A stretch of DNA of 62,847 bases, counting the filler, from Reclinomonas americana ATCC 50394 (Eukaryota): assembly GCA_048213135.1 (NCBI GenBank). It is 5 parts of 3 records of this genome, joined end to end, with 100 filler letters (N's around TTAATTAATTAA, not from the genome) between each part and the next. Parts side by side here need not be neighbours in the genome. Positions count along the whole stretch, not along the records: positions 1 to 10,495 come from PS015471.1; positions 10,596 to 33,914 come from PS015471.1; positions 34,015 to 38,607 come from PS015471.1; positions 38,708 to 59,194 come from PS015472.1; 1 more part is not named here. The stretch is one strand, 5' to 3'. Positions 31-57,846 of the stretch are shown piece by piece; the stretch's first letter is position 1; every line of letters begins with the position of its first letter. Made by a program: the position numbers and the translations under genes. The notes beneath the pieces are model-generated. The model searched no databases, was not told the origin of the DNA, and saw only the letters and a list, made by a program, of their open reading frames with translations.

Positions 31-3000
31 GATGGTGAAAAGTACGTGGCGACGCACGACTTTGTGTCGGAGAGCGATCACGAGTTGTCGGTTCGAGACG
101 GGCAGCTGGTGCTGGTGCTGTCGGTCGAGGAGAACGGGTGGTGCTTGGGCCAGATTTATGAGGAGAAACCAGTCTCATCGCAACTGCAACCAATGGGCTG
201 GGTGCCGCTGTCGCACTTGCAGAGGGTTCACGTACCGGGCCCAGAGTCGCTGACACGAACGCCCCCCGCTCGCTTCGAGAGAGACTATCCACCCGCAGGC
301 GCCACTGCCGAGACCGTGAATCCGCTGTACGCGTCGCCAGCTGCCAAGATGCCCGACGTGAGCTTTGTGGCGCACGCTGACGACACGCCGGTAGTGCCTC
401 GGCGCTCCAGCGTCACTATCCGTCCGGATGCAGACGCCGCACCGATGGCTGCGGCAGCTGGTCGTCCGCGAGCGGGATCCGCCAGTGGTGGAGTGCCACC
501 GCTGATGCCCGCACTTCCGCAACTACCGCCGGCGCAGCCACAGCCACAGTCGCAGAACACGGGCACCGGTCGTCCTGCCAACATCTCGCCGGGAAGATCA
601 CGCGCCTCCACTGTCGGGGCGATGCCGAGCGCACTGAACACTGCGAAGTTCCTCGCGCATCCCGGTGCCTCGGGCATGCAGCAGCTATCGCTGCCTCTCC
701 CACCGCAGCTGCCGGTCAGAATTCCGGCACAGGGATCGCAGTCGAACCGCTCCTCTCGTGGTGTGTGCATCCGTGTGAAGCTCTGTGTGTGTGTTTTTTT
801 CTCGCTGCTCATGTGCTCTCTCGGCGCAGATTTGACTCCAGCGGCGCCCGCCTCACAAGGAGAAGCCGGCATGCTCAATCCAATCCCAACACCACCCGCA
901 ATGGCGCGTCCTGCCCCAGTGGCTCGACCGGCGCTCTCGACACGGAATGCACCCGGTGGCACCAACAATCGCGACTCGTTCCGCGAGTTGCCGCTGGACG
1001 AGGAACCAATCGGTAAAATACCCATTACTGTGGTAGTGTGTGTGGCTTGTGCGCTCACGTGTGGTGATTTGCATCTGCAGTCAATGGCGTGTCCACGGTT
1101 CAGCCGCCGTCGCAACGGTACGTTTGGAATCGTGTGTTCCATCTCCGCCCTCGTCACCGCTGCTCATCTTCTCTTCACATGCAGTGAGGGCGAACTGCGC
1201 AGTGTCAAGTACTGGAAGGACAGAAGCATGATGCTGGAGAATGGTGTGTGTGCTGACTAAAGGCATACTGTACCACCAACCCATGCTTTTGTCAACTGAT
1301 CGGTGACATGCAGAGGCCAACGAGCTGAAGCACAACAATGAGGTTCTGGGGAAGCGAGTCCAGGAACTGGAGCGCGATCAGTCCAATGTGCGTGCGAGGG
1401 ACGGTGCATTTGTTTCCCCATGTGAGGCACACGCTGACTGCGGGCGAAAAAATTCGTGTAGGTGGAGTTGGAGATTCACACATTGGCCTCGGAGCTGGAG
1501 AGGGAGCGCGAAACCTATCGGGAGCTGGAACAGAAGCTGGGTATGGGTTCGAATGGGCAAGACGGAGACAGCCCGTCAAAGCGACCATTCGACGCCGTCG
1601 CAGCCGATGTGTTGCGTTTCTCCCACGTTGAACCCTCGTGGAACGGGACTTGCTGCTGACGTGTGGATATACACACACACAGGCTCAAGGAGCAAGTGCA
1701 ACATCTGCAAGAGGAACTCATTCGTGCCAAGATGTCCAACGAGCAGCTGCAGTCGGAGAACGCGCACTTGCATGGGTGAGTGGTTGACAGTGTTGTGCAC
1801 ATGCACACTTCGATGGCGAACTCAATCAATGGTGTCGTGTCAGTCTGGTGCGCAAGTACAAGAAGGAGAACGCGGTGGCTAACGCAGCCGTGGCGGAGGC
1901 GTCTCAAGAAAAGACCAAACTGGAGCAGGAGGTCGAGAAGGACACAATGGCGAACGACCGCGTGCAGCGACTGACACGTGAGAACGCCCGTCTCAAGTCG
2001 TACGTCGACGACTTGATTCGTGAACGATCGAGTGAGTCGAGCTTGCTGCGCTCTTCACCCCCACGTGCTGCCTTCTGAATTTAACTTTTGTGTGTGTATG
2101 GTAGCACTGAGCCAGCGTGTGGACGAACTGGCGGAGAGACTAAAGGCAGCAGAGGCAAACAGGCCACCGGTTGTCGAGCCTGTTCGGACGGCGACGCGGA
2201 CTCAGTCGGTAGGGCCTCAGCAGAGTGGGGGAAGGGGAAGGGGAAGGAAGTGGGAAGGAGGTGAGGGAGAAGACCTCGCCCTTCTCCCTCGTTGTTGCCT
2301 TTCGCCCTCCCCTTCCTCCCCCTTCCTCCCTCCCTTTTCCCCTCTCCCTCCCTTTTCCCCACTCCCTCCCCCTTTCCCCCCTCCGTCCCCCTTTCCTCCA
2401 TCCCTTCCCCCTTCCCCCTTCTGACACGTCTTGTTTTTTCACAGCCACTCTCATTCTTGGCCGACGTCCCGCCAGCTCCTCGCATGCCATCGTTTTCTGT
2501 GTATCCATACGCACAGCGAGTGCCAGTAGAGTCAGCACCGTCACTGGAACCGGCTCCGTCTCGATTGTCTTCCGCTCTGCCGATGCCGATGATGACAGAT
2601 ATCAAGTTGTGTGCACGCGCTCCGTCATTACTCGTGTGCGCGAGTTGCTGACAGCTCTCCTATTTTCCTCAGTGCTGCACCTGCGACATTTGGCGGTCAC
2701 CACAGACACGGTGAGCCGCTTGACTCCATCTCTTCGGTGGCGGCAGCGGCACCGTCGAACCGAAATCCGTCGGCATACGAGCTTGACGCATTGGAGCGTC
2801 GGCTGCGTGACAGCCTGCGGCGAATGGAGGAATCGAACTCGACTCTTGTGAGTGGTGAACCCGGTGGCGGTGGTGGTGGTGGTGGGCGAACTACGGCGCC
2901 AACAGCAGGCGCCGAATTCCGCTCCTACTACCATCCGCGGTCGGCTGACCCCATTGGTGCGTCGCCCATGCTTCAACTCGACGTCAAGCGGCCGGCGATC

Positions 3001-3586
3001 GTCTCTGCTGCGGCCGATCTTCGCGCACGCACGAGTGCAGTCGATGGCTACTCGCCGGTATGTGTGGTGTGGCATGTTTCTCTGACACTCCACCACCCTT
3101 TAGCTCACCAACTTGCACACACAGGATCATGGTGGCGGCCGTGCCGATCCGTTCCGCTCGTTGCAACGCGAACGAGAACGCCTCCTGCAAGACCAACTGA
3201 TGTACCCGCTGCCGTCGGTGCTCGGCAACGGCCACATCCCTGTCGCCGGCGTGCGACCCACGACTCCCCCTTCGCCCGGACGCTCGACCAGTCCATACGA
3301 CGCACTGGTATCGCGCATACAAAACAAGCTGGAGGAGGTGAGTCGCGATCGCGGCGCACCAACCCGGACCGCCGGACGCAGTACGGTGCTGCGAAATCCA
3401 TTCGAGGCCACCCTGCCTCCAAGCCACCTGCCTCCAGCCTCCTCCTCGTCGTCGCGACCCTCCAGCCCCACCGAGTACGGCAGTCGACCGTCGCTGAACG
3501 GACATGCCTACGCCGGCAACTCCCGAAAGGCTCCTCCACACCGCAAACCGCCACCCCCACACTACGGCGTGTCGGGGTTGTACTGA
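31..3586 (+). CDS. SH3-domain, Pro-rich, coiled-coil protein (multi-exon, 5' part upstream of window)
   Basis: Exon after AG at 29-30 reads DGEKYVATHDFVSESDHELSVRDGQLVLVLSVEENGWCLG...GWVPLSHL (SH3). A Pro-rich region and coiled-coil exons follow, joined by about 11 GT-AG introns; stop TGA at 3584-3586. Confidence 0.8.
2227..2422. repeat. Polypurine (GGGAA-like) tract followed by long polypyrimidine (CCCTT-like) tract, intronic
   Basis: Visible directly inside the intron 2209-2444. Confidence 0.85.
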
Positions 3587-3706
3587 ATACACATAACAAT
3601 CTCTCATAGTTGTGTAAAAAAAAAAGCGGTCGCGAAGGGCGTGGAAAAGGCGGGACCAAAATCGCGAACACACATTGTATTGGCACAAGCGGCTCCAGTC
3701 ACTCTC

Positions 3707-6467: not shown

Positions 6468-6641
6468 ATGTTCTACTTGGTGAGTCTGTCTCTGCCTCCA
6501 CAGCACGCCAGTCGCACACCACGACGAGCTCACCTTGATCGCGCACACAGCTCAAGCTGAAGAGGCGCATTCAGTTGCAACCAAAGGAACTTGGTCGCGA
6601 GATCGCCGACAAGATCAGACGAGCACTCATTCGCGAGGTTC

Positions 6642-6672
<31 letters not shown>

Positions 6673-7350
6673 TGCACACACGCGCATGTCGAGTTGAATT
6701 TCGATCGCTCTGCAGGTGGAAGGCACATGTGACCAGAATGGATACATCATTGCGTTGCTGGAGATCACACACACGGGTGCCGGCAAGATCGACGAGCTCT
6801 CCGGTGCGGTGTCTTTCCAAGTGGAGTATCAGGCGCTCATCTTCAGACCCGAGAAGGGTGAAGTGTGCGACGGCGTGTGTCTGTCTGTGTCACAGGTGCG
6901 GTGTCTCGCCACCCTTTCTTCCCCCCCCTCACGCGCGTGTGCTCATCTTCTGAGTCACCACACGCGCACACAGCATGCCATCATCGTGCAGGTCGGGCCT
7001 GCGCAGGTGTTGGTGCCGCCGCAAGTTGTGTCAACATTGATCGACTCCTTTCGTGTCTGTGACCTGCTGATGCTGACGTCTCTCTCTCTGTTCTCCACAG
7101 ATGATTCCCGAGGAGATGAAGTTTGACAACTCGCAGACGCCCATGTTTGCCAACGAGGATCGCTCACTGAAGATCACACGCGGCACCGAGCTGCGCATTC
7201 AGATTTTCGGCACCAAGTTCATGGGCACCAGCATTGTTGCGTGTCGACTGTCAGGTTGTGCTTTGTGTTTTTCGGGGGCTGACGCAGGCTGTCCATGCGC
7301 AGAACGCACTGGGATCCATTCAGGGTGACTACTTGGGTCCAATCGGGTGA
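6468..7350 (+). CDS. RPB7: RNA polymerase II subunit RPB7
   Basis: Six exons splice to MFYL|LKLKRRIQLQPKELG...VEGTC..NGYIIA...IFRPEKGEVCDG...GTELRIQIFG...ALGSIQGDYLGPIG*. Confidence 0.9.
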
Positions 7351-7411: not shown

Positions 7412-9538
7412 TTATCCGTCAATCAGCTGCTCGATTCTTCGCTCTCGTGCCGCCATGTCTTTTCTCTTGTCGACATCTCGGAAGTACCGTTCTGTCACGT
7501 GCTCAACAGCCGAGGTGAATACCCGCGCCGCATTCTGCCGCAGCTGCTGTCGCGGGGAGAGGTGAGTGGGCGACTGCGACAGTGGCGGTGGCGACGCCGT
7601 GTCTGGGCGATGCGGTGTCTCGGTGGCGTCGCCCGAGTTCTCCTGCGCCTGGAGGTGCGTCCACACCTCGAGGAGCTGCCGCTCCGACTCTTTCAGCGCC
7701 ACATCCACCAGTACGGGTTGAGGAACGAGCAGTTCTGCGCGGGCGGGGCAATGAGTAATGGGTGCGCCGCAGTGACGACAGTCACACGCTGACCAACCCG
7801 CAGCACTCGGCCAGTGTGTGGACATGCGCGGTGAGAGGCGAGGCGACGACCGATGGGTGCGTGGCGAGTGGGGAGAGCGTGGAGACTGCGGGGCACGCGC
7901 GGACATGGGTTGCGGCGCCGACTCCAAACGAGCCGACACCAACTCGGCATTTTCCTGCAAAGCAACCGAACTGTGAGCTGAGAAAAGCACACAAAAAGCG
8001 ATCGAAAGCAGAGCCGACCTTGACTTTGACGACCGCGGCCAAGTTCTCCAGTGACTCGCGTTGCTCAACCGACTGCGGCCGGCTGTCGTCGTCACTCAGC
8101 TTGTGCACCGTCGTGAGCGTCTGTCGCTCAATGCCCACTTGCAGAGCCTCGAGCTTGGAGCGCAAATGTGCCGACCACTGTGACGCAACCGCAGCAGCAG
8201 CATGGGAGTGTGTGAGTGAGACACAGAGAGAGAGAGATCGGAGACGAGTTCTTCATGTGAGTGAATGCGCACGTTTTGCGGGAGTGCCGCGTCTGGTCCT
8301 CCCACTGCACCCGCCGGTCCGAGCAATCGCAGATTGGTGGCACCTGGCGGAGGCGTTGGCACGGGCGTGGTGGCTGCCGACTGTGGCAAGCGTCAGAAGC
8401 CGCGATGGACGTGAGCAGAGTGAGAGACGCACGCACGCAACTGCACGTTGTGCTCGTGCACTATTCAGTCGACTGGCAGGCACCGACGGCAGCGACGGCG
8501 TGAGCGACATGGCCGACAGGGAGCCGGAGGGGTGGGGAGGTTCGTTTCCAGTGGCGTTGGCAGCTGCGCATGCGCGTCAGTCGTTGTGTATTTCCCAACC
8601 GCTCGCGATAGCTGAGACTCACCTCCAGTGTCGCCCCCTGGCTGCGCCGCATCGCCACCGGCAGAGTCGACCAGTGCCGGGCTCGGCTGTTCACGCGAGC
8701 GCACCTCTGGCGGAATTCTGCATCGCCCTCACTCATCAGTCTCATGGCCAACAACAAGCACGACGAACGAGCAACGCACAATGTCGGCATGGTCAGCGGC
8801 ACCTTTGCAGGCGACTTGGGTCTCTTTCTCGGCGTAATCACTGCCACAGAGGCGACAAGAGTGAGCAGCGCTGCTCAAACACAACACACACACTCACAGA
8901 GAGAAGAGAGTGCGCATCGCAACTCTCACGCTCCTGATCACGATACATCATGTCGGCCGCAGCCTCGGCCAGCAACGTATTGCGTGGCTCCAGCTCCGAC
9001 GCACGCGCAAAGCACCGGTGTGCCTCGCGGTACTGATACGACCGAGCATACGCCTGTGTGCGCAGAGTGAGGGGGAAAGAGTGATTGCGTGAGCAGTGTG
9101 TCACACGAGTGTGCTGACCTCGCCTCCCAACACCCAGCCCTCCACATCGTACGGAAGCAGACGCATCATGTTCTCGGCATCGAGACGCGCCGAACCCGAC
9201 AGGCCCAGCTTGAGATACGAACGTGCCCTCAGGCTCAACAGAAAACCATCAGCGGGCTCCACGACCAAACCCTGTCATCATCAAATGGCGAATGCGCGTG
9301 TGTGTGTGTGTGTGAGAAAGAGAGAGAGGTAGAGGAGAATGCGTGTGAGAGAGTGGCACCTTGGTGGCGAGGTCGGCCGCCTGCTGGTACTGCCCGCGCT
9401 CAAACAAATCAATGGCGCGTTGCGACAGCTGCTCGTGCTCACTGGCCGCTTTCCTGTGAACACCAGCCTGCAAGTCAGTCACTCACTACGCCACACTCTC
9501 TCTTTCACACACAGACACACGGACCTGCGCGAGGCCAT
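7412..9538 (-). CDS. TPR-repeat protein with low-complexity C-terminal half
   Basis: MASRR|KAASEHEQLSQRAIDLFERGQYQQAADLATK|GLVVEP...LRARSYLKLG...|AYARSYQYREAHRCFARASELEPRN gives three TPR-like units; intron phases are consistent. Confidence 0.75.
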
Positions 9539-10235: not shown

Positions 10236-13200
10236 ATGTCTGCGAAACACAGTCCGGAGACGTGGTGTGGCCAGGCGGAGGCCGTCCTCCGACAGATTGG
10301 AGAGCCGCTCTCCGTGACGCTCCTCTACGAGAAGATTGCCGAGCGGGGCGTGATGAAGACGAAAGCACGGTGAGTGGGTGGAGTCACGCAGACACACAGA
10401 CACACGCACATGCACACGCAGAGCAGACTGCGTGCATGTTTTGCAGTGTGTGATGTGAGCCGCCATGATTGTGTGTGCATGGTGTGTGTGTGTGTNNNNN
10501 NNNNNNNNNNNNNNNNNNNNNNNNNNNNNNNNNNNNNNNTTAATTAATTAANNNNNNNNNNNNNNNNNNNNNNNNNNNNNNNNNNNNNNNNNNNNGTGTG
10601 ATCATTGTGGTGTTACCGTTTGATGATGCGCGGTTGTGTAATAGACATGACAAGAGCAATGAGAATGGGCGAGTGAGCGAGAGAGTTGGTGAAGAGTGAG
10701 AGTGATCGTACACGAAATGTCATTTGGGCAGAAACCGTCTGTCGTGTTCGGAAATTCATGCAATCCATGACTGATTTTTTTGTTGCTCCCTCTCCTCATC
10801 CTCTGCAGGCATCCGGTCGAGGCTCTCAAGAAGGCCGTGTACAAGGAGACCACGCGAGTCGGTTCGGTGCTGGTGCAGCTCGATGATGGTCGGGTGTCAC
10901 TCACGGATTGGACACTGCAAGCGCTCTCGCCTGTTGCGTCCTCCCTCCGCTCCCCCCGTTGCATTTCCACCGCTTGCTAACACATACGTGCAGTCACGAG
11001 CTGGCACCAAGCGACCTCAAACACCGCTGGAGGGACTTGGTGAGGCGACAAGAGTCAGTGTGTGTGTTTCAATTTCTTCTCATCCTTTTTTCNNNNNNNN
11101 NNNNNNNNNNNNNNNNNNNNNNNNNNNNNNNNNNNNNNNNNNNNNNNNNNNNNNNNNNNNNNNNNNNNNNNNNNNNNNNNNNNNNNNNNNNNNNNNNNNN
11201 NNNNNNNNNNNNNNNNNNNNNNNNNNNNNNNNNNNNNNNNNNNNNNNNNNNNNNNNNNNNNNNNNNNNNNNNNNNNNNNNNNNNNNNNNNNNNNNNNNNN
11301 NNNNNNNNNNNNNNNNNNNNNNNNNNNNNNNNNNNNNNNNNNNNNNNNNNNNNNNNNNNNNNNNNNNNNNNNNNNNNNNNNNNNNNNNNNNNNNNNNNNN
11401 NNNNNNNNNNNNNNNNNNNNNNNNNNNNNNNNNNNNNNNNNNNNNNNNNNNNNNNNNNNNNNNNNNNNNNNNNNNNNNNNNNNNNNNNNNNNNNNNNNNN
11501 NNNNNNNNNNNNNNNNNNNNNNNNNNNNNNNNNNNNNNNNNNNNNNNNNNNNNNNNNNNNNNNNNNNNNNNNNNNNNNNNNNNNNNNNNNNNNNNNNNNN
11601 NNNNNNNNNNNNNNNNNNNNNNNNNNNNNNNNNNNNNNNNNNNNNNNNNNNNNNNNNNNNNNNNNNNNNNNNNNNNNNNNNNNNNNNNNNNNNNNNNNNN
11701 NTCCTCCTCATCTGCAGCCGAGATCTCACTACGAAAGAGACCACACACTGCTGCCGAGAAGCTCCAATCCCTTGTCGGTGTGGTAGCACCGCTTCTCCCG
11801 CCGCCAACACCGCCACCACCCCCTCCACCAGCCGCAGCGGCTGTCATTAGCTTGTCACCATCGTCCATGGCCTCGTCATCGTCACCGTCGCCGTCCTCAG
11901 CAGGTGGAGCCACAGCCACCAGCGTGTCACCGTCCAATGGCTCGCATGGACAGTTTGTGTCGCCACCTTCACGCAGCGCGCCACTCAAGCGCGCCTTCAA
12001 GGCCACGCACAAAATGTCTGGCAACGGCTCCTCGTCACCGACCAACGGCAGCAGCAGCAGCACAACCACCACCACTACCACAACAACAACTGTCGCCACC
12101 AGCAGCAGTTCTGCCGCCGCGGCGGCTGCGGCTGCTGCTGCTGCTGCTGGCAATGGCAGCAGTGCAGGAGCGTCGTCAAGGCGCGGCTCCATGATGGCGC
12201 CACCACCCATCATGACGGCACTACCGACAACGCCTCCCACTGGACCGCGTCCGCCGCCGGTTGAAATCTCCAAGGTTCGTTTCTATGTTGTTTCGTTGCC
12301 CTTGCATCATCGTGTATCTGACTTGCAATGCCGGCAGTGCTATGGTGTGGATGCCGGTGCGGTGGATGCGGAGAGCGAAAAGGCGGTCGACAACTCGCTG
12401 GACGCCGATGTGCGACTGGTGGTGGACAGTGGACGATCGGTGGTGTATGCGCACTCGGCACGGTTGACAGCCAGCTGCCCGTTCTTCGCCGCGCTGCTGA
12501 ACGAGCGCGCCAGCAAGCGGGCGGCAGCAGACAAGAAGGCAGCAGTCGCGATGCAAGACGACCGTGAGGGTGGCGATGCGCCGACTGTCACCGCGAGCAC
12601 AACCAATGTCGCCGACGCCGATGATATCGACTCGGCGAGCGTGCCGCGTGTGCTGTCACTGGAGGACGTGGAAATGGACGATCGCAATGCCCGTTCAAGT
12701 CCAAACACCACCAGCAAGTCGACGCTGCCGCCGCTGCCGCCCATGTCGGAGGCTGAATGTTGCGACTGAGTTTCTCTCTCCTTCAAAAGGAGTCTCTTGT
12801 GCGTTTAGCTCACACGCACACGTTTCTACGCAGTTGTGACGCTGGAAGTCGCCGGTGTCAGTCGCGAGGCCATGATTCGAACTCTGCAGTTCTTGTACAC
12901 GCAGCGTCTGCACGTCAGCACGAGCGTGGTGTTGCAGTTGGTGGCAGCTGCCCGCTCTCTGCATCTGCCGGTGATGCTGGCGCACTGCACGACATTCATG
13001 CACGAGAACCTGACGCCGCACCTGGCGCTGGCGTGCTGGGACTTGTCGCGAGCGGACCCGACGCTCTTCTCTGCCGCCTTCCTCGAGCACTGTGAACAGT
13101 TTGTGTCGCTGGAGATGAGCGCAGTGCTATCGGAGGACGCCTTTTTGCGTCTGTCGCCCGATTCGCTCCTGGCGTTCCTCGAGGCCTTCCACGAGTTCAT

Positions 13201-14679
13201 GTGCGAGAAGCCAGAGGAACTCTTTGTGAAGCTCGTGCAGTGGGGCAGGTGAGCGCTGGGAAGTCTTCGAAAGAAACAGTGGCGACTCTCTGCTCACTTC
13301 ACCTCCCCCCTCGCTCTCTCTGTGTGCGTGCACGCAGAATACATTTGCATCTGGCGCATGTGCCGCTGCAGGCGCTGCCGTCGGACGATCGCCGTACGCT
13401 TGCCGCACTCCTGGCACGGTTCATGGAGTTTGTGCAGTTCAACGAAATACCATTCCAGCACTTTGTGCAGCGCATTGAGCCGACGCAACTGGTGCCGCTG
13501 GAGGTGGCGCATGCGCGATACAAGCAGCACCTGTTTACTTCGAACGCGGAGCAGAGACTATCGCCTCGTGGTGCGTCGTCATCATCATTTCCGTTGCAGG
13601 AAGTTCAGTCGTTCGACTCACCTTTGCCCTTTTTTCCCTCTCTCTCAGCGGACCATCTCGAGCTGTTGAGTGCCGTGGCCACGTCAGACCCGCAGATGGA
13701 TCAGTGCTCCATTCGCTGGGAGATTGAGCAGTTTGCTCAGATCACCGAGACGTACATTTCGAGCCCGGTGTTTGTGGCCGGCAATCAGTTTTGGTGAGAA
13801 CCGATTTCCTCTCGTGACTCGCGCGCAATCATGGTCTCTCACAAACGCTGGTGGCTGGCGCGCAACAGGAGTCTCGTCTTGTATCCACGTGGCGATTCAG
13901 ATGCGGCTGGATTCATTTCGTTGTTTGTGCGGCGTGTGTCGGCGACCTCTGTCAATGCCAAGGTACTGTCGTGCACTCCGTTTTTTGTCTCTCTCTTTAC
14001 CTAAGAGGTCACTGACGCTGCTGCAGTCGTGGGCCACCTCGTCCGTCGCCGGCAATGTGTCGTTCCGGTCGCCCGACGAAGACTTTAGGGTTTGTAGTCT
14101 TGAGTGGTTTCACTGTTGCTGTCAACACTCTTTTTTGTTGGCCTGCTCACTCGTTCGCGCAGTCTGCCACGCCATCGCCACTGTCTCGCATGGACGACAG
14201 AGTTGCGTCTATATGCGCACGCACACGCACCATCATCGATGGCGACTGACGTGTTTCATTATTTTGCTTGTAGGGCACACCTACCAATGCTGACGAACGA
14301 ACGGCATCGCGGCCTGGCACGCCGGCGATGAGCATGACGGTCAAGCCCGGAAGTGAATGGGATCACGAGCAGGTTACACACATGGACCTGCGCTTCTCTG
14401 CGCATCCGGAGCCGCCTCATATGGACCCGCGTCGATGCAGTTGCGCAGTTGCCGCCGCCGCTGAAACAAACAACGCCTGTGCTCGTGACTCACGAGTTGG
14501 TGGTGACTGCAGAGTTGGTGTTCCGAAAAGATTGCAATGCGCTTGGATTCGGACCGTGCGTCGAGCGAGAGAAGCTGGTGGAGGCGTTGGGCGAGGGTGG
14601 GACTCTGTGGCTTCACCTACTGATGTGCACGCCGCTGACCTCCAGCCGCCGGATGGTGTCGCTAGCAGGCTTTGCGTGA
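10236..14679 (+). CDS. HARE-HTH + BTB/BACK + MATH domain protein
   Basis: TWCGQAEAVLRQIGEPLSVTLLYEKIAERGV...HPVEALKKAVY (HARE-HTH-like). DADVRLVVD..VYAHSARLTASCPFFAALL and LQFLYT (BTB). IRWEIEQF...SSPVFVAGNQFWSLVLYPRG..GFISLFV (MATH). Crosses two gaps, so a single gene is inferred. Confidence 0.7.
10540..10551. other. Artificial contig linker TTAATTAATTAA inside an N run
   Basis: Identical 12-mer with stops in all six frames, centred in N runs at four places. Confidence 0.95.
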
Positions 14680-19192: not shown

Positions 19193-19284
<92 letters not shown>

Positions 19285-38586: not shown

Positions 38587-38651
38587 GTGCGTGCGTGCGT
38601 GCGTGTGNNNNNNNNNNNNNNNNNNNNNNNNNNNNNNNNNNNNNNNNNNNN

Positions 38652-38663
38652 TTAATTAATTAA
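38652..38663. other. Artificial contig linker TTAATTAATTAA
   Basis: Same 12-mer inside an N run. Confidence 0.95.
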
Positions 38664-38749
38664 NNNNNNNNNNNNNNNNNNNNNNNNNNNNNNNNNNNNN
38701 NNNNNNNGGAGTGAGCAAGAGTATGCGAGCAGCAAAACAGCTGACGTAC

Positions 38750-44947: not shown

Positions 44948-45872
44948 TCACTTTGCGTGCATGGCCTTCCACTCCTGCACTTTGGGGTGCTCCGCCACGC
45001 GATTGACAATGCTGATGATGAGCGGGTAATCGTCGGCAATGGTCGCCGGCATGCCCTCGATGCGTCCGCCACGCAAATAGTTAATGTTTTGCGCCAGCCA
45101 CAAGTCAGCCACGGTCATGTTCTCGCCCACGGCCCACCCGCTGCGCGTGGGATTCGTCGAGAGGATCTGCTCGACTCCGCGCAGGCAGTTGGGCACGTCC
45201 ACGGTCACGGCGGTGGCCAGGCGCGTTTTGCGCACCTCGGGATCCTTCTCGTGCACCGCCGGTGAAATGCGGTACACAATGTCGTGCAGCGCGTCCAGCA
45301 GCTCATCCACGCGGAATGCCTCCATTCTGTGCACGAGAAGGTTAGCCGGAAGAGAGAGAGAGAGAGGGAGAGGAGAAGAGGAGAAGACGAAGAGAAGAGC
45401 GCGCGCAACGGATCCTCTGGGTACAAGTGGGCGAGACGAGCAGCAAAGCTGCACAAGAGGCGCGTTCAGTCAGAGAGGGCGGTGAGTGGAGAGACACTCG
45501 TACACAGAGGGGGGACGCACCGTGCCATTGGCACACACTGAGTGAACTTGACGCCGTCGACCTGCAGCTTGCTCACTCAGTCTCAAAATGTGCATTTTGC
45601 ATCTCTGACTCTCTCACACGCACAATCATCTCTGGCACTTGGCCGAAACGCAGTTCACCAGCGGCCTTGCGACGCGCAAACTCCTCAAACGAAATGCGTT
45701 CTGTGAAGTGCGTGTGTGTGTGTGTGTGTGATCGGAACAATGCACACAATGGTCGCCTGACAACAACGCGACGCATACCATCCTCAAACGGAATGTCGCC
45801 CAGGAAGAGCGCAAGGCGAGTGACCTCCACACGGCCGGGGAAGTCAAAGTATGTGACCTTGATTTCAGACAT
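44948..45872 (-). CDS. Glutathione S-transferase, sigma-like (copy 2, tandem paralog)
   Basis: IKVTYFDFPGRVEVTRL...FGQVPEMI|VDGVKFTQCVPMAR|FAARLAHLYP...GENMTVADL; four introns. Confidence 0.95.
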
Positions 45873-45989: not shown

Positions 45990-48898
45990 TCAGGCGGGGC
46001 CAGTGGGCGTGACCCACGTTCTCCACCCGTATCGTTCTGAATCGGTCTCGAAACCGGTAATGGTTCGACGGCAAAGCGGGCACTCGGCACCGCCACGCGC
46101 CGTCAGCATACCGGCGCACGAGTGGCACAGCACCTGGTGACTGCACGGCTGGAGANNNNNNNNNNNNNNNNNNNNNNNNNNNNNNNNNNNNNNNNNNNNN
46201 NNNNNNNNNNNNNNNNNNNNNNNNNNNNNNNNNNNNNNNNNNNNNNNNNNNNNNNNNNNNNNNNNNNNNNNNNNNNNNNNNNNNNNNNNNNNNNNNNNNN
46301 NNNNNNNNNNNNNNNNNNNNNNNNNNNNNNNNNNNNNNNNNNNNNNNNNNNNNNNNNNNNNNNNNCGGATCGGCGTAACGCAAATCGCCGGCAAACACGG
46401 TGCGAACAGTCTGCACACCACGCCACACAACAAAAAACATCAGTCACTGCGAGTCGGTGCTGTGTGCGAGCACACGTGACCTGATCCGCCTTGAACCAGT
46501 GCGCAATGCCGAGGTCGCCAACACACGCTCGTCCGGCGTCATCAAACAGGATGTTGTCGGGCTTGATGTCGCGATGAATCACTGAGCGTGTATAGTGGTG
46601 AGGTAATACTGCACAGACGGGTGCGAAAGGATGGTTGTCTTACCATTCTGTTGTGCAGGTTTGGCACGGATCAGCAAAAACGTGAGCAACAAGAAAAAAT
46701 CAAAACCTACGTGAAGATCGTGTCAAAATTGCACCTTGCTGCAGTGCACCACAGTGCGGTGGCGGTGAGCGAATAGCGACGTATACAGAGAAGAGAGAGA
46801 GTGTGTGCATCTCTCGTACCTATGAATCCCGGCCACCACTTCCGCACATCGCAAGATGCATGCAATGCGTTCCTCGATGGTCATGGGAGGCAGACTGCGC
46901 TCCTGGTAGTGCAATAGCCGGTGGCTCAGGTTGTGCTCACTGCGCCAGATTTGGTGAGTGTGCTCTACTTTGATCGACCAAGATGCAATAGCAGACTGCT
47001 ACACCTCATGGCCTCCAACACGATGCACCGGTCGGCGGTGTCCGACTCAGCGAAACCAATCATGCGCACCAGACCAGGGATGCACAACTTGGTCAACATC
47101 TCCACCTGCATCACGAGGGGGAGAATCGTCAGCGTGTGTCAAATCCCACATGCAACCAGGAGGAGGAGGAGGAGGAGATTGCGACGAAACTTCGGTGCCA
47201 AACGACGCAATGTTCCACGGAGAGGCGGCGTCAAACACTTTAACTACCACCGGCTGCTGGCCCCACATGCCGCGGTACACCGCCGCTTGCCCTCCCTCCG
47301 CCATGCGCTGTGAGAGGCCTCCTGTAATGGTCACAATCTGTGACCATGTGAACACCGTCGGCGACACTGCGTCGCATTTGCCCAGACTTGCGTGAGCCAA
47401 CAAAACAAGCGCGGAAACATGAACGGCGCACATACCCTGCTGATGCATCTGTTGCTGCAAAATGGCCAGATCACGACGAGCCGCTTCGGCACGCTCACAT
47501 TCCTCGGCGCGCTGCCGGTCCAGCTGCTCTAGCGCCGCCTGCATCTGCACCAGTTGTTCGTTGGCGGCGGCGAGCTCCTGCTGCACGAGCTGTGAGGAGC
47601 GCACGCCAGAGTCGACGGTGCCGTTCTTGTACTCGTGCAGGCGCGTGCGCAGCCGCTCATTCTCCGCCGTCAGCTCATCCACCTGCTTGCGCAGATGGTG
47701 CGCTTCGTCGGCGGCGTCATCGAGTTGTTCACGCAGATCAGCCGCCGACTCGGTGGCCACCGACAGCTGTAACCGGAGCGAGTCTTTCTCCTGGTAACTG
47801 TCCTCCAGCGCCAACTGCATCTCGGTGAGCAGGTCGCTGGAGACCGCCGCCGCCGCCGCCGCCCCCGCTACATCGGCATCATCGCGCCGAGCAGCTCGCG
47901 CCGCCGTGAGCGCCTGCTGTAATTGCACAATCTGCCAACCACGCGCGCGATCAGTGCCGACGACACACTCGCGTCACAACACATGTAGCACACGCACCAC
48001 GGCACGCTGTGCAGCCACCTCCTCGGCCAGCAACTCAGCGCGTCGCGAGGATGACGATGACGACGACGGCGACGCATCCGCTGCGGCTCGGCTCTGGATG
48101 ACAATGAGTTCATCCATCGGAACAACATACAGCTCGACAGACAGCGACACGCACCGGACTCTTGGCCGCACCCCCGGCCGCCGCGGACTTTTGTCGCGAT
48201 CCACTACCAGCACCTTGCGCTACGCAAAAGAGCAAAAAAAGCAGGCAGGCCGTGTGAGCATACGCGCCACTCAGGGGGAAGCAATCGAACAAAACCCACC
48301 CTGGCCCATCTTTCTTCGCAAGTACTCGACCACCGCCGTGCGCCCGTGCTTCTCGGCCGTATCCAACGCCGTCTTGCCCTTGTTGCTGCGCGCATTCAGC
48401 AGCGACACACCGTGATTACGCACGAGGTACTTGACAACATCGAGGTGGCCACACGAGGCCCCGAGATGCAACGCCGTCTTGCCCTTGTCGGTGGCGCGCA
48501 TCACCAGCTGCGGCCGCTCTCGACACAAGTACTCCACTGCAGCAGTGTGCCCATTGGAGGCCTGCCACCACACATACACCAGTGAGAACGCAAGCACACA
48601 GCGCAGTGAGAGAGACAGGCAGAAACACACCGCACGATGCAACGCTGTTTGGCTGTACTTGTCCATGCTGCGCCATCATCACACATGTGAACAACAGTGA
48701 GAGAAGACGCGATGAGTGGCACGACACGCACCTCTCCAGCACCGCCTTGCCATGCTCACGCGCCAGAGCTCGCAGCTGCTCAACGTTCCCATCGCGCCCA
48801 GCAACACGCACTTGCCGACCTCTACAAAACACACTGTTCAACACACACACACACACAGCATGATAGAGAGGGAGAGGAAGACGCAACACTGAGGCCAT
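45990..48898 (-). CDS. Ankyrin repeat - coiled coil - IRAK/RLK-like kinase - RING protein
   Basis: ANK: QTALHRA, GKTALHLGA, GKTALDTA. Kinase: EGGQAAVYRG, VVVK, IHRDIKPDNIL, GDLG, GDLRYADP. RING tail: PCSHQVLCHSCA..ECPLCR. The RING link crosses gap 46156-46365 and is inferred. Confidence 0.78.
46644..46647 (-). other. 4-nt micro-exon AATG of the kinase gene
   Basis: Flanked by CAACAG and GTAAGA; needed to restore HSKNVIHRD. Confidence 0.75.
46735..46738 (-). other. 4-nt micro-exon CAAG of the kinase gene
   Basis: Flanked by CTGCAG and GTGCAA; needed to restore HSKNVIHRD. Confidence 0.72.
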
Positions 48899-48941: not shown

Positions 48942-50123
48942 ATGGATAATGGATCTTCGTTACGCGCGACGCTCGCCTTTGTTCATTACACGTCTTTCTC
49001 TCTTCTCTCATGCTTTCTACAGGAATGTGCTGATTACAACTTGGAGACCATCATATCGACGAGCAATCGTCGCCACACGGGTTCGGGGAGACCGCGCGCA
49101 CGCAGGCGCTCAGCAATCTCCTGCTTCAACTCGGTGGGGAGCAGGCGCACAGGCCCGCACTCTTGCACGTGCTCGCCTTGTGTCACTGGTGCAGAGGACG
49201 AGGAGGAGGCAGCGTCATTGTCATTGTGCAGCTCGCGAAGGATCTCTGAGGCCGCTGGAAATGCTGCGCGCGCGTGTCTCTCAGTGAGTGAGTGAGTGTG
49301 TGTGAGTGAGACTGAGGGGAAGCGCAGTGTGACAGACCAAACGCTGGCCGCTCCTCTGTCATGCATTCGCCAGAGACAATCGCTGCGCACTGAGTCACTC
49401 AACATAACAATGGCGTGGGGTGAGCGCGCGTCTTCTCCCTTTCTCCACCTTCGCTTGCTCCACTCACTTGTGTGCGTGTGTCTGCGTGTGTGTGCAGATC
49501 GTCGCAACACGCGCAATCCATCGCTGTATGACACGCGCGCCCTGATGGACCCTCAGTTGCGAGCTTGTCTTCCACTGACTCACTCGTTGCACACTGTCTC
49601 ACACACACACACACCCTCGCAGAGCACCATATGTCGCACAGCAGCGCGACCGGTACACCAACATGTTTGATCCACGGTTGCGTTCCCACTCGCTTTCTCT
49701 CATGCTCTCTCGCTCACTCTTTTGCACTCTTGCAGGAGTCGCTACTTTGAGGACTTCCCGTACCGCGAGCGGGCGACGTACTCTCGCGGCTCGGCCCTCG
49801 GCAATCCCGATTTCGGCAACTTCCGCTTCCGCAAGGGCTACTCGGCCGAGCTCACGCTGCGCGACGGCGAAACGGCCATGTTGTCGGGCGACTCGCGCAG
49901 CAAGTCGTACCGCACGCACTACTCGCCCGAGTACCGCTCCTCGTTCTTCTACTCGTGGCTCGGCAAGCTGATGCGCCTGCTCTGGCTCGATCGCCTGTTC
50001 GGCTTGCATGTCGACACGGTCAAGCATGTCCGCACGCGATCGTATGTGTTTGTCACCGCGCGCATCCTCCCCGATGCTGCTACGGCCACAGCAGCGCCTT
50101 TGCAAGCCTCCGAAGTCTCATAA
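48942..50123 (+). CDS. Hypothetical protein (start uncertain)
   Basis: Phase-consistent exon chain ending SRYFEDFPYRERATYSRGSALGNPDFGNFRFRKGYS...EVS*. The last exon has a strong C/G third-position bias. Confidence 0.55.
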
Positions 50124-50409: not shown

Positions 50410-51693
50410 TCCGTCACACGCACGCACACGAATAGGAGCTGAAAAAACTCCACGCGCACTTCACACACAGGTAAAGAAGCTGGTCACTCGTCAGCGTGTG
50501 GCGCCGCGGTGGCCTGGCAAGCAGGAGCGCTCAGCAGAGGCGGGCGAGGAGTGTCCCATTTGCTATCTCGTTGCGTGGTGGAATGACTTCTGAGTGCGCG
50601 CGCGCGCGGACATCTCGCTCTCCGGGCTCCGGCGTTTTCGCGCACGCCATTCTCTCTTTCTGTGTGTGTATGTGCGTGCGAGTGTCATCTCTCTTGTGGT
50701 GTCTTGTCAATGTGCGCATGTGCAAAAAAAAGGTGCGGTTGCGAATGATCTCTGTTGCGCGTTCTCCGTCTTCGGCGCATCAGTGTCATCATTATCAATC
50801 GAGAATAGTCACTGGCCACAATCATTGCACATCTTACTCACTTCATTCTTCCTCTTGCAGGCGTATCCAGCGCTCAACACATGCACGTGCTGTCGGCAGA
50901 CGCTGTGCACTGGTCAGTCAGTCAGTGTGTCTTGTCTCTGTCTGATTCATGCGTGTGTGCGTGCTCATTTGGTGGTGGTGGTGGCGGCGCAGAGTGCTAC
51001 TTGCAAGTGAAGAGCCCGACGTATCCTGCGGCCTCCGAGTGCCCGTTCTGCAAGAAGCGGAACTTTGACGTCAAGTACTTTGGCGTGCGAGCGCTGGAGG
51101 AGCGAGTGAAGGAGGAAGAGGTCGGAACCTCGATCTCTCTCTCTCTCTCTCGCTTACAGTGGTGATGGCGTTTCTTATTCGGTGTGTTGTGTGCAGGAAC
51201 TGTTGCGAGTACAGGAGCTGCAGCGCAAGGCGCGTGAGTTGCAGGAGGAGGAGCGGCAGCGGAAGCGCGCCCAGTCACTACGCTCCAGTGCGAGTCCTGT
51301 GGCCGGTGTTGCGGGTTCGCCGGCCTCGGTGGGCAGTGCCGATGCCTCTTTTGATCCCACCGAGTTTGGTTTCTCCAGTCGCGAGGGCTACGAAGCGGGT
51401 GCGTAGACACCGTTCTCGAGACGTGCTGTGCACTCCATTGCGCTCACACGATTGGTGTGACACACGCAGCACGGAACGCGGCGCAAAGTGTGCGAGTGCC
51501 GCCGCCGGGCATTATCGAGATTGGTGGGCGCTCACGACGCCACCGCTCGCACCGGGAGCACTCGGGTGGTGGCGGAAGCGGCAGCCGCTCCCATCGACAC
51601 TCGTCTCGCCGTGCCTCGCGCGATGCAGTGGTGCGTTGTCGTTGTTTGTCGGTGCTGACTCGATCCTTCTCCCATCACCAGGAATACTCACGC

Positions 51694-51724
<31 letters not shown>

Positions 51725-53223
51725 GTCGCGTCGGCAGCAGCAACAGCAGGCAGATGATGTGATGCAACTCTCATTCAATGTCGGTGATTATATTCCCGAG
51801 AGCCTGCGTGACATGGCGCGCACGTTGCCGACAGGCATGGATGTGGACTACGAATCTGCCATGCTCTCCGAAGCCATTCGCCTGTCCATCTTGGCGGCGC
51901 AAGAGGACGCTGCTCGTACCGAACAGCAGCAACAACAGCAACTGCAGCAACAACAACTGGCGGATGGCTCTGCGGAGCTGCAATTACAGTCGCCGCAATT
52001 GGAGTCGGAGAAGGCCGTGCGAGTGCGAAAGGAGGAAGAGGAAGACGACGAGGACGACGGTAGTCACATTTTTGGTGGTGACGCAGTTACGCGGGCAATT
52101 GCACAAAAACTGTCGTCGAGGGACGATGAATCGTTGACGCGGTTACGACGGGGCGATACTGGCGCGCCGAGCGACGAGCAGCACGTGGATGCAATGTTCT
52201 ATCTGCGAGCCGTCGCGGCGGCGCATCAGGCGGCAGAGGCCGCACGACACCCAGGTATGGATGGACCGCTGTCGTTCTTGCCGGAGATGTGCGCACGTGT
52301 TGACTGTCTTTCTTATGCAGCCGTGGTCACCATGCCGTCGGCATCGCCGCTTGCCGAGTCACCTCTTGATGCGGCCACAATGCCGGGATCCGCAGGCGCT
52401 CTTGCTGTTGCTGTTGCGTTTGCCTTGTGCGCGCGACAACCGTCTTTCCATTTCTCACACACTCTGCAGGAGAAGCTCGATGGTCCGGCTTATGGCGGCG
52501 ACGAGGCAGGCTCGTCGCTGTCGAATTCACCACGCGACAGCACGGCTCGCCTGCGGTCGGCCAGTCTGTCGTCGCAGTCGACCAAGCCGAAGGCCGGTCT
52601 GTTGGGCACCATGTCGCAGGAAATCACCTCGTCGTCGCCAACCTCGGAGGGTCTGACGACGGGTAAGGAGGATGGGGAGCACTCACCAAAGGGCGCGTCG
52701 GGCTTCACTGTGCCTGGTCTGGCCGACGATTTTGGTGTGGTCGACGAGGACATGGGCGATCGGGATGCGGTACGTGTGTATGTGCGTGTGCGTGCGCGTG
52801 TGCGATGCCGTAACTCACCGGTGTCATTCCGCCGAACAGCGCGAGGAGCTGCCTCTTAGTGGCCTGTTGATGTCGCAGAATCCGGCCGTGATGACTCTGC
52901 CTCCCACTGGTCGTCGGAGAAGTAGCAGTACGTCTCCGATTGCTGAGCGACGGACTGGAAAACTGGAAGAGGGTTCGCTTCACCGTTTCTTCTTTTTTCT
53001 CGTCGTATGGCTTCGCGTGCGCTCACCGTGTGTAACAGGTGTCGCCGCCTCGTCAGCATCTTCGTCAACCCCGCCGCCACCACCACCACCACTGCCACCC
53101 GGTGCCTTGCGGCCCAGTGCCAGTGTGGAAGGCGGTGCTGCTGCTCAAGGTAGCGACGACGAAGAGGAGGACGAGGAGGCCATTCTTGCGCTGGCAATCG
53201 CCATGTCGCTGCGTGAATCATGA
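50280..53223 (+). CDS. SIP5/DA2/GW2-like RING protein with C-terminal UIM-like motif
   Basis: MGTKGSK..PTGLYPSCPWDDKQVKKL..RVAPRWPG, ECPICYL|AYPALNTCTCCRQTLCTECYLQ...ECPFCK, MLSEAIRLS, EEAILALAIAMSLRES*. Confidence 0.88.
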
Positions 53224-55323: not shown

Positions 55324-55566
55324 AAAGACGCGAGTGAGGGAGATTGTAGAACCGAACTCCGTCTGTCGAGGCGTTTCCTCTTTTGCGTCGTCGTCGTCAT
55401 TTTGTGCCGTTTTTAGTACTGGTGGTTGGCGGTGTGCGTCTGTCTGTGTTGGACGCGGTAGCTGGCGTGATTTCTCGATCCTCACACTCTTTTTTCTTCG
55501 CTTTCGTTTTGCTCTTTCATCTTGTTCGGAATGTGTATACTCGTTTACTTCAAAGTGGTTGTTGCG

Positions 55567-57846
55567 TCATCGCTGTCCTTCAAACAGTCGACGTCGCTCG
55601 GCAACGCTCATACTCGAGAGGTCCCGCCCGTCGTCCACTGCCCGGTTCACACCGAAACGCGCTGGCAGACGAGCTGTGCCAAGGACACTCGTGTCGTGAG
55701 TTCACCCGTGCACGTGATAACCATCAGTGTGGCGCATACGCAACTGGAGACGTGCACCAGGTTCTGGATCGCGGCCTCGATTTCCGAAGGCCGATTTTCC
55801 TCTCTCGGCCACTCACGAGCGGGCACCGTCGGTCGCGTCAGCGATTGTTGGCGCAGGGACTCGCCGAACGAGATCACCGCCGAGAGGGAGGTGGGAAGTT
55901 GGTCCACGGCGTTGCGCACCGCGTTTGCCGTGTCGGCATCGTACAACTCGGGGACCATGGCGTCCGTGTACCGCACGATTTGACTGACATAATCCGGGTC
56001 CGGATGTGCGTCCACTCGGCGCGGTGGCGCCGGCAGGTCCTGCAGCAGGGGGTCGAGTGGCGGCACAAACTGACGTCGGCTGGCCGGCTGTGACGATGGT
56101 GCAGCAATCTCGGCAGCCGGTGGCGACACGGGCTCTTCGCCTCGGGCGGGGGAGAGGGCAGAGGGTGGATGTGAACTCGGCTGCAACGCCTCACACAGCC
56201 ACACCAGTTGGTACTCGAACATCGATCGCCGCAACTCGTTCCTCACATCCGCATCAGCTACGCAGACGGATCAGACGTGAAACGAGACAGCACCACAGCG
56301 AGGATCTTCACGCAACAGTCGTCGTCGCTGGGCGGCGCCGTATCCAACGGCAGAGACAGGCAGGTGGCCAGAGTCATCTGCTGCTCCGCTGCCGCGCTGC
56401 CGCTCACCAGTGACGCGCGCATGCGAATGTCCGCCGCCTCCGCGTGAGTTCGCATCAGCAGCGGAATGTGCCGTACGTCGGGGCAGGTGAGTGGCGCCAG
56501 CGGGATACGCACGCGCAACCCGTCGGCATCTTCGTCGATTGGCCCCGGCGAGTAAATTGACTCGACGTAATCGGCGACCCGCTGCGGTTCGCCAGTGACA
56601 GCATGCACAACTTCCAGCACAATGTGGGCGCGCGGATGGAACACGGATTGCAGACTGGAGATAATGTTCCAGAACGCCAAGCGCAGTTCGTCAAATGTAC
56701 GAATGTCAAAATGCCTGCCCCACGGAAACCGTCGGCGCACAAGCGACAAGTATGTGGCTCCCAGATCGGCAAACTCCATGTCGTAGAAGCCCATCGTGTA
56801 GACGGCAATCTCCTCCACTGGCATCTTCAGCTCTGCCACCATGCGATCCAACTGTCGCTCAAAGGAGCGCAACGACACTGCGTCGACACCGTCGTTCATG
56901 GTCGGGTGGCCGTCGGTGAGGAACAGAACCACGGGATGACGATTCTGCACGCAAAAGCGCACACATAATCCACAATGAGTGCATGTAATGCATACAGAGA
57001 AAGCAGTCGATGCCCTGACGCACCATGCCCGTCTCTCGGCGTCGACGGGCCGCCTGCTCACACGCATTCAGAATACCATTGTACAGCGCGTCGAGAAACG
57101 CGTCTGTGCTGTAGCCGGCGTCGGTGGGCAAGCTGCTCATCCAATCCAGCATCGACTGCACCGTGCGGAGCGTTTGCTCCCGGTGCACTTCGTCGGGCGA
57201 GTTCATCGACGAGAACGGCAGCACCTCCACCACTCGACCGGCATACGCAATCACCGTGGCGTCGTGCTTCCCGGCCTCCACAAACACTTGTTCTGTTGTT
57301 TCAGGCCGGCGTCTCATGAGGGATCGCGTGCGTTTCGCTGGCAGACAAAGGAGCGACAGAGAGAGAGACGCACACACACCGACATGATCGAGGAGGAAAA
57401 GGCGGAGTGTTTCAGTGACCATGTGCAGCTTGGTGTAGCCCTCGTCGGGCGTGGCATCGTACATGGATGCACTGCGATGCATGCGATCAACACGATGAGA
57501 GGAAGAGCGGGAGAGAGTGGGGGTGAGAAACGAAACCTCATGTCGAGCACAATCGCCATATCACAACCCTGGCGACTTGTGAATGAGCACACGCACACAC
57601 ACTCTCTCATATGCACAAGTGTTGCCACTCACTGGTGCCTCGTAGGCTACTGGCGCTGCTGCGCTGGCGCCCGCCGGAGCGTCGACAGTGAGTGTGATCA
57701 GATCGTGCACACGGCCACCGACGCGCGCGTGACGTATGTTCAGTCGAGCACTCTGTGTGTGTGCGTGCTCAGTCAGAGAGGGAGGAGAGGAGGAGAGAAG
57801 AGGTTGGAGGTGACGAGTGCTCGCAACACACATCCATCGTACTCAT
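55567..57846 (-). CDS. von Willebrand factor A (vWA) domain protein
   Basis: DMAIVLDMSASM (MIDAS DxSxS), VVLFLTDGHPT, VYTMGF; eight exons ending SVAERRRLFEGQR*. Confidence 0.82.

Follow-up and report, generated by a model that had tools for sequence, protein, structure and literature searches.

The stretch of DNA analysed here (the window) comprises 62,847 nt, filler included, of the genome of Reclinomonas americana ATCC 50394 (GenBank assembly GCA_048213135.1), taken as five parts of three records joined end to end. Introns in this window that open with GTTGCGT, and more rarely with GTTGTGT, GTTGAG or GTTTCG (GTT introns), were found to constitute a genuine and abundant class of 5′ splice sites (donors) belonging to ordinary U2-type introns. 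In what follows, the last exon base is −1, the first intron base is +1 and a slash marks the splice junction. A Pfam scan of 560 stop-free open reading frames (ORFs) of the window placed about 25 recognisable genes, including genes for SH3/RhoGAP, RPB7, BTB, formyltransferase, ELO, TMEM260-like, CH-domain and DUF1764 proteins, and further genes for DUF2340, SWIB, TauE, two GSTs, a kinase, ankyrin proteins, PP2C and a BING4/WD40 protein.

The window has a G+C content of about 57% and is depleted of the dinucleotide TA (0.34 of expectation), while CA/TG and CC/GG stand at approximately 1.35 and 0.70 of expectation, respectively. Because TA is depleted, TAA and TAG are rare (27–62 each per frame, compared with approximately 300 for TGA, by far the commonest stop triplet) and long frames are open in all six registers, with 337 ORFs of at least 100 codons. 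Since stop codons are rare, the argument that the frame forces an intron is weaker here than the original prediction, made by hand-splicing, may have assumed.

That prediction had listed 40 introns whose donor resembles the usual one with an extra T, such that the conserved G and T lie at +6 and +7. The strings were present at all 40 positions on the strand given, as GTTGCG (32), GTTGTG (4), GTTGAG (2) and GTTTCG (2). For seven of the 40, the exact boundaries were supported from outside the window, by proteins derived from expressed sequence tags (ESTs), by profiles or by a paralogue:

7025–7100, plus strand: GTT intron GTTGTGTCA of RPB7; P0003 junction VPPQ/MIPEE
7236–7302, plus strand: GTT intron GTTGCGTGT of RPB7; P0003 junction GTSI/NALG, and PDB matches
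44318–44388, minus strand: GTT intron GTTGCGTCT of GST gene 2; P0001 junction ELH/VNG
44016–44092, minus strand: GTT intron GTTGCGTTG of GST gene 2; P0001 junction HDL-x-YRM
23558–23632, plus strand: GTT intron GTTGCGTCG of the ELO gene; Pfam ELO 148/149
41530–41605, minus strand: GTT intron GTTGCGTCC of the TauE-like gene; custom profile 394/395
45327–45409, minus strand: GTT intron GTTGCGCGC of GST gene 1; gapless paralogue collinearity

The EST-derived proteins P0001 and P0003 are EukProt ORFs, both labelled Reclinomonas americana (jakobid), and each was the sole near-identical protein matched by its exon query. In the spliced alignment of P0001 (208 aa) to GST gene 2, 201 residues were identical and five GT-AG introns were placed, with donors on the minus strand at 44542 (GTTTGCCCC), 44388 (GTTGCGTCT), 44276 (GTGAGTGAG), 44092 (GTTGCGTTG) and 43810 (GTGCATACT). 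The alignment was unchanged when boundaries other than GT-AG were permitted at a higher penalty. The codon split by the 44092 intron encodes F in the window and V in P0001, and was read as a strain difference because no alternative cut of the window DNA yields V; the other six mismatches lie inside exons. For the RPB7 gene (6468–7347), P0003 (170 aa) was 168/170 identical, again with five GT-AG introns, the plus-strand donors being GTGAGTCTG at 6480, GTTCGTGTG at 6638, GTGCGGTGT at 6896, GTTGTGTCA at 7025 and GTTGCGTGT at 7236. At 7025 the cut falls at GTTGTGT rather than at the in-phase GTGTCA that follows three bases later (GT at 7028). Thus, the transcript-backed donors of the class were two GTTGCGT in GST gene 2, and one GTTGTGT and one GTTGCGT in RPB7. 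With 2 of 170 and 7 of 208 residues differing, the ESTs are probably from a strain other than the assembled one.

The remaining outside support came from structure, profile and paralogue comparisons. The RPB7 exon 7101–7235 matched PDB RPB7 residues 113–152, and the last exon matched the C-terminus of an RPB7-family PDB chain (E=1.6, the only match). In the ELO gene, aa 1–50 of exon 23408–23557 corresponded to Pfam ELO 98–148 and aa 1–30 of exon 23633–23722 to 149–181. For the TauE-like gene, a custom profile built from 57 full-length homologues gave two gapless matches, the exon ending at 41606 reaching profile position 394 and the next exon, starting at 41529, resuming at 395. The 208-residue model of GST gene 1 was gaplessly collinear with P0001 across the introns at 45778, 45623, 45520 and 45409; its own exon query retrieved a GST with 28% identity but no EST-derived protein. 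For the RING example at 50570, the donor string is present and no typical 3′ end was found under the acceptor/branch rule applied here.

The hexamer GTTGCG occurs 78 times in the window compared with 68.6 ± 7.9 in shuffled sequences and is followed by T in 34 of the 78; as it is not enriched over shuffles, the class cannot be argued from string counts. Strand was informative, however. In a test that used no intron model and took strand labels from coding-score cores, the heptamer GTTGCGT had a sense:antisense ratio of 31:3 relative to the local coding strand (p=7.7e-7), compared with 23:21 for GTTGCG followed by A, C or G, 71:45 for GTGCGT and 37:40 for GTGAGT.

The window was further analysed with a gene parser in which a codon model, seeded from the stretches matched by Pfam, was combined with strand competition and a semi-Markov treatment of exons and introns. 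With donor information limited to GT and no 3′ model, GTTGCG was the top donor hexamer (12 of 137 introns). With a 3′ model comprising acceptor, branch motif and length, still without donor information, GTTGCG accounted for 16/148, 14/112 and 12/83 introns at three intron penalties. The first of these compares with 1.78 expected from the background of sense-strand GT hexamers (54/4485; p=4.8e-11), and the runners-up among the 148 introns were GTGCGT (12) and GTGAGT (10). When donor hexamers were learned iteratively, 145 introns were obtained, led by GTTGCG (20), GTGCGT (16) and GTGAGT (13), and 22 of the 40 listed sites were recovered. A 43-position acceptor matrix was dropped owing to over-prediction (320 introns), as were two naive self-training gene finders, one of which found very few genes and the other more than 50% coding on both strands. 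Donor hexamers could not be told apart by their association with an exact downstream CTGAC.

Taking the EST-derived proteins, profile collinearity and the donor-blind parse together, the core of the original prediction, a real and abundant donor class with conserved G and T at +6 and +7, was borne out, and we hold it to be nearly certain that the GTTGCGT-like class is genuine. It made up 24 of 145 introns (17%) in the donor-informed parse and four of the ten introns in the two genes backed by transcripts, or about 15–25% of the introns in the window; the fifth to a quarter first estimated lies at the upper end of the supported range.

Local support, consisting of coding score, frame and 3′ end, was obtained for 29 of the 40 sites, with intron lengths of 55–105 nt; together with 44388 this gave 30 supported sites. 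The per-site local score is unspecific (24% of all sense GTs pass) and was used only for placing 3′ ends. Beyond the seven introns above, 23 were supported ab initio:

1611–1682, plus strand: GTT intron GTTGCGTTT, branch CTGAC; donor-informed parse and local score
5301–5367, plus strand: GTT intron GTTGCGTTT; donor-informed parse and local score
10933–10993, plus strand: GTT intron GTTGCGTCC, 61 nt; local score only (total 11.6), not in the donor-informed parse
12759–12833, plus strand: GTT intron GTTGCGACT of the BTB gene; donor-informed parse and local score
23125–23206, plus strand: GTT intron GTTGCGTGT of the ELO gene; parse and local score, with a loose Pfam match (58 then 64, loop)
49677–49735, plus strand: GTT intron GTTGCGTTC, 59 nt, alone among the listed sites in having G at −1; parse
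8381–8441, minus strand: GTT intron GTTGCGTGC; local score only
8841–8923, minus strand: GTT intron GTTGCGATG; local score only
15389–15466, minus strand: GTT intron GTTGAGTGT; donor-informed parse and local score
16958–17032, minus strand: GTT intron GTTGCGTCA; donor-informed parse and local score
17130–17213, minus strand: GTT intron GTTGTGTAC; local score, ambiguous with GTGTAC at 17210, which the parse chose
17434–17493, minus strand: GTT intron GTTGCGTGG; donor-informed parse and local score
21786–21850, minus strand: GTT intron GTTGTGTGC of the formyltransferase gene; donor-informed parse and local score
25239–25318, minus strand: GTT intron GTTGCGTCC of the TMEM260-like gene; parse and local score
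30356–30421, minus strand: GTT intron GTTGCGTGC; local score, the parse taking instead GTGCGT at 30416 with an atypical 357-nt intron
30752–30822, minus strand: GTT intron GTTGAGCTG; local score only
32658–32729, minus strand: GTT intron GTTGCGATG of the DUF1764 gene; parse, the upstream exon matching Pfam DUF1764 67–94 of 100 up to the donor
32815–32892, minus strand: GTT intron GTTGCGTCG of the DUF1764 gene; parse and local score
40001–40065, minus strand: GTT intron GTTGCGTCT; donor-informed parse and local score (total 32.6)
41243–41304, minus strand: GTT intron GTTGCGTGT of the TauE-like gene; local score only (9.8)
42260–42324, minus strand: GTT intron GTTGCGTGT of the TauE-like gene; parse and local score (36.7), profile consistent, in a loop
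47106–47190, minus strand: GTT intron GTTTCGTCG; donor-informed parse and local score
56258–56316, minus strand: GTT intron GTTGCGTGA; donor-informed parse and local score

The choice between 17213 and 17210 is the same 3-nt ambiguity as at 7025, where the EST-derived protein favoured GTTGTG. The parse also placed two introns of this type that had not been listed:

28385–28461, minus strand: GTT intron GTTGCGCAT; parse
41866–41943, minus strand: GTT-type donor GTTTCGTTC with G at −1; parse

The other ten listed sites, a quarter of the list, lacked support from the gene models. In eight of these ten, a YAG acceptor accompanied by a CTSAY branch motif lies 57–95 nt downstream; for 50570 and 48887 no typical 3′ end was found under the same rule:

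2606–2672, plus strand: weak site GTTGTGTGC; typical 3′ end at 67 nt, flanking coding scores about zero
14202–14273, plus strand: weak site; typical 3′ end at 72 nt, no coding support
14440–14512, plus strand: weak site; typical 3′ end, not supported by models
49556–49622, plus strand: weak site; typical 3′ end, not supported by models
52413–52469, plus strand: weak site, in frame; typical 3′ end, not supported by models
20447–20522, minus strand: weak site GTTTCGCTC; typical 3′ end, not supported by models
40728–40822, minus strand: weak site; typical 3′ end, not supported by models
55674–55744, minus strand: weak site; typical 3′ end, not supported by models
50570–50576, plus strand: donor string alone, RING gene; no typical 3′ end
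48881–48887, minus strand: donor string alone; no 3′ end under the acceptor/branch rule

Apart from the donor, the GTT introns resembled the other introns of the window. In the donor-blind parse, the 16 GTTGCG introns were 59–83 nt long, compared with 58–94 nt for 25 of 27 canonical introns (two outliers). A CTSAY branch motif 8–31 nt from the 3′ end was present in 40 of 55 confident introns compared with 18% of random windows, and both this motif and a YGCAG acceptor were common to GTT introns and other introns. All ten transcript-backed introns, four of them of the GTT class, were GT-AG at the level of protein evidence. The GTT introns are thus cut exactly at the GT, with length, branch and acceptor as in other introns, and pass every test applied of U2-type GT-AG introns. 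U12-type introns likewise form a second class alongside others in a genome, and they have an extended, rigid 5′ motif (RTATCCTT), a branch motif TCCTTAAC and no exon-side consensus. A U12-type identity was rejected, as the donor here is GTTGCGT and the branch CTGAC or CTCAC, and the GTT introns share the CTSAY branch and YGCAG acceptor with the other introns.

The tandem GST genes on the minus strand (gene 2, 43619–44636; gene 1, 44954–45872) both encode 208 aa and are approximately 46% identical over the C-terminal domain. Their first three introns are at matching positions and the later ones are not. Donors at one of the shared positions are GTGCGTG in the one paralogue and GTTGCGT in the other; since the two differ at the same protein position, the donor types interconvert in place.

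The class also differed on the exon side of the junction. The last exon base was G in 4 of 35 donors of the GTT class compared with 56 of the 70 that have G at +5 (p=1.6e-11), and in the donor-blind parse in 0 of 16 compared with 53 of 74. In the transcript-backed genes, the four GTT donors had c, t, a and t at −1, whereas the six other donors all had G. Across 29 supported listed sites the −1 base was A 13, T 10, C 6 and G 0, against A 4.4, C 8.9, G 10.4 and T 5.4 expected from codon-position composition. In the donor-blind subset of 16, it was A 2, T 8 and C 6; because the excess of A is absent there, the safe statement on −1 is ‘not G’ rather than ‘A’. Three transcript-backed donors that are weak on the intron side, GTTTGCCCC (44542, minus strand), GTGCATACT (43810, minus strand) and GTGCGGTGT (6896, plus strand), all have G at −1. 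Such donors seem to lean on the exon side, a mirror image of the GTT class.

Within the intron, the 18 shifted donors of the form GTTG-N-G in the donor-blind parse had C (16), A (1) or T (1) at +5, whereas N in 46 canonical GTG-N-G donors was A 19, C 14, T 10 and G 3 (p=4.4e-5). T was found at +7 in 26 of 35 class donors, G at +6 being part of the class definition. The description of the class as the usual donor plus one T therefore held for the displaced G and T, but not for the spectrum, which is almost only GCG (16/18) where the canonical donors have GAG, GCG and GTG at 19:14:10. The avoidance of G at −1 and the bias to C at +5 are features beyond the account originally given. Of the mechanisms first proposed, namely a U1 register that is shifted or bulged, variant U1/U6 snRNAs or altered protein factors, they indirectly favour a shift over a bulge and suggest a non-standard U1.

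The best explanation, to which we assign about an even chance, is that U1 binds the class one base out of register and has a 5′ end with G opposite C. Taken singly, the shifted register is slightly favoured and the modified U1 is a more tentative proposal. Written as eight letters, AG/GTGCGT and A/GTTGCGT differ at one letter, and U1 would bind both in the same way along the RNA. The intron G+1 would lie opposite C9 of U1, in the slot of the exon −1 G, U+2 would face C8 as a single mismatch, and U+3, G+4, C+5, G+6 and U+7 would occupy the places of +2 to +6. Relative to U1, the cut would fall one base upstream of its usual place and would be fixed at the GU by later steps (U6/U5/Prp8), as at rare human shifted-register sites. 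A U1 5′ end with G, not U, opposite the C would carry an ACGUAC-like recognition sequence, as reported for Mastigamoeba. A rigid heptamer would follow, because the shift costs one G:C pair and the remaining positions must all pair. The near absence of G at −1 favours the shifted over the bulged register described below, because in the shifted register the intron G+1 fills the place of the exon G and −1 need not be G.

Nearest-neighbour duplex energies were calculated on assumed U1 5′ ends, ignoring pseudouridine and proteins. For the standard U1 5′ end, A, U or C before /GUUGCGU gave −1.4 to +0.5 kcal/mol and G at −1 gave −2.8, whereas A/GUUGAGU gave −5.8 although donors of the GUUGAGU type are rare here. 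With ACGUAC, A/GUUGCGU reached −7.3 kcal/mol in the shifted register, the canonical AU/GUGCGU −7.9 and GUUGAGU −2.6. Since the standard end does not explain C at +5 and ACGUAC does, a changed U1 recognition sequence is predicted.

Several points weigh against the class or its proposed recognition. The energies leave the avoidance of G at −1 unexplained, as ACGUAC gives −7.1 kcal/mol for G/GUUGCGU and −7.3 for A/GUUGCGU. The enrichment of A at −1 in the supported set (13/29) fell to 2/16 in the donor-blind set, the trade-off between G at −1 and C at +4 in canonical donors was not significant (p=0.22), and the match of the class −1 to the canonical −2 (p=0.40) had little power owing to the almost even base composition of the canonical −2. 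GTT introns were among those used to train the 3′ model; the run giving 12/137 was free of that model, and hence of its training set. The parser is crude and took 7028 and 6875 where the EST-derived protein shows 7025 and 6896. The transcript evidence is at protein level only, from ESTs 97–99% identical to the window, and one P0001 mismatch falls on the junction codon of 44092. All results come from a single 62.8-kb window, and the statements on register and U1 5′ end are all inference.

A different way to read two donor types would be a dedicated snRNA (small nuclear RNA), either a second U1 variant or another species fully complementary to GUUGCGU, with ordinary U1 reading G/GTRNGT and both codes feeding one U2-type spliceosome. 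The seven positions G, T, T, G, C, G and T are nearly fixed, far tighter than in the canonical class, C dominates at +5 (16/18), binding of standard U1 is predicted to be near nil, and the exon side is released from the requirement for G at −1, all as such an RNA would have it. The 5′ ends of U1 are also changeable, as in Entamoeba and Mastigamoeba, and Physarum is said to have a standard and a modified U1 (bioRxiv 10.1101/2022.06.08.495308). On the other hand, Rfam gave 0 matches to RNA genes in the window at gathering thresholds, and so no snRNA; a single U1 with G opposite +4/+5 already covers both classes in the duplex estimates; and a −1 position free of selection would be about 35% G, not 0/29. 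We consider a dedicated snRNA unlikely, yet a serious rival. The wider proposition of two 5′ splice-site codes in one major spliceosome, G/GTRNGT and a rigid H/GUUGCGU, the latter recognised by a second U1-type snRNA dedicated to it or else by a re-tuned shifted-register U1, with the binding register routinely uncoupled from the cleavage site genome-wide, is itself doubtful, if a little less so.

U1 might instead bind in the normal register with one U (+2 or +3) bulged. This register is documented at human sites with a bulge at +3 or +2 (PMC4856993, legend of Fig. 1C), and with G at −1 the best predicted duplex on an ACGUAC U1 does take it. However, a bulge keeps the pair between −1 G and C9, so G at −1 should be as common as in other donors or commoner, whereas it was depleted in all three comparisons (4/35 vs 56/70, 0/16 vs 53/74, and 0/4 vs 6/6 transcript-backed), which makes this register improbable.

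Descent from a spreading introner-like element would account for a rigid terminal motif common to many short introns of similar length, but is very improbable: 18 aligned GTT introns had in common only GTTGCG(T), their first 6–7 bases, and the final AG, with a mean column identity of 31%, and the GST paralogues have different donor types at the same intron position. An artefact of hand-splicing in a stop-poor genome, with the true donors elsewhere, draws on the depletion of TA (0.34 observed/expected), the 337 long ORFs over six frames, the lack of enrichment of GTTGCG and the ten sites without model support, and is refuted for the class as a whole by the seven exactly supported sites, the donor-blind parse (p=4.8e-11) and the 31:3 strand asymmetry.

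Other features of the window were noted. A large multi-exon gene on the minus strand (14825–19154) has strong coding scores and contains four of the listed GTT donors (15466, 17032, 17213 and 17493); it had no Pfam match at E<=0.01 with ORFs or E<=1 with exons. GT/CA microsatellites are very common (GTGTGT, n=275 in the window, 174:101 towards the sense strand), and a predicted 125-nt intron at 19156–19280 (minus strand) opens with some 40 tandem GT repeats. The 12-base string TTAATTAATTAA lies between paired 44-base runs of N; there are five such pairs, for example at 38608–38707, and one of these linkers falls inside a predicted intron. It looks like an assembly linker for joining contigs, not biology. 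Besides the two EST-derived ORFs, the 5.8 billion clustered proteins searched with three exon queries yielded no close relative, and a metagenome scan with P0003 found no relative. Gene models of this genome are apparently absent from public protein sets.

Binding in one register and cutting in another, as suggested by rare human sites, appears to apply here to about a sixth of the introns in the window. If true, this would provide hundreds to thousands of natural substrates for studying what positions the cut once U1 has left, and would show what mismatch at +1/+2 is tolerated by the U1 step and whether U1 co-evolved with the donors. For annotation, gene finders with one position-weight matrix would set wrong boundaries for roughly every sixth intron of this lineage, as our own parse did at 7025. 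Jakobids are a reference point for early eukaryote evolution, which gives accurate gene models and a description of their spliceosome a wider use.

Among the top-ranked open-access literature, no description was found of a displaced donor as a bulk class, of GTTGCG/GUUGCG donors, or of jakobid snRNAs or donor motifs. The jakobid Andalucia godoyi is reported to have an intron-poor genome in which all introns are GT...AG (PMC7050145). At human shifted-register sites, all U1 pairs are displaced by one position while the cut is still made at the GU, so that U1 pairing does not set the cleavage site (PMC4856993). The test oligonucleotide used there, ACA/GUCAAGUAUA, also lacks G at −1 and has G and U at +6/+7. 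In that account, however, the human sites are rare and individual, are read by standard U1 and have a consensus that follows AAGU, whereas the class described here makes up about one intron in six and has its own rigid GTTGCGT with C at +5, for which almost no binding by standard U1 is predicted. In the human bulged registers described in the same paper, an extra nucleotide at +2/+3 also moves the G and U one place downstream, but the pair of −1 G with C9 is kept, whereas the class here avoids G at −1.

For the co-evolution of donors with U1, the clear cases come only from the preprint on Archamoebae, which pairs AACAAAC with GUUUGUU donors in Entamoeba and ACGUAC with GUGCGC in Mastigamoeba (bioRxiv 10.1101/2022.06.08.495308). 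The G opposite +4C in Mastigamoeba U1 is the same change as predicted here. As described there, each of these genomes has a single donor class, read in the normal register, in contrast to the two classes found here, one of them displaced by a base. The same source gives GYGCGY donors with a standard U1 for the Mamiellales green algae. These algae resemble the present case in having GC-rich genomes with short introns, a G-C-G donor core and a CTGAC-like branch, and differ in having one class in the normal register. In mechanism, the human shifted register comes closest to the class described here; in evolutionary terms, the nearest parallel is the U1 that co-evolved with donors in Entamoeba and Mastigamoeba.

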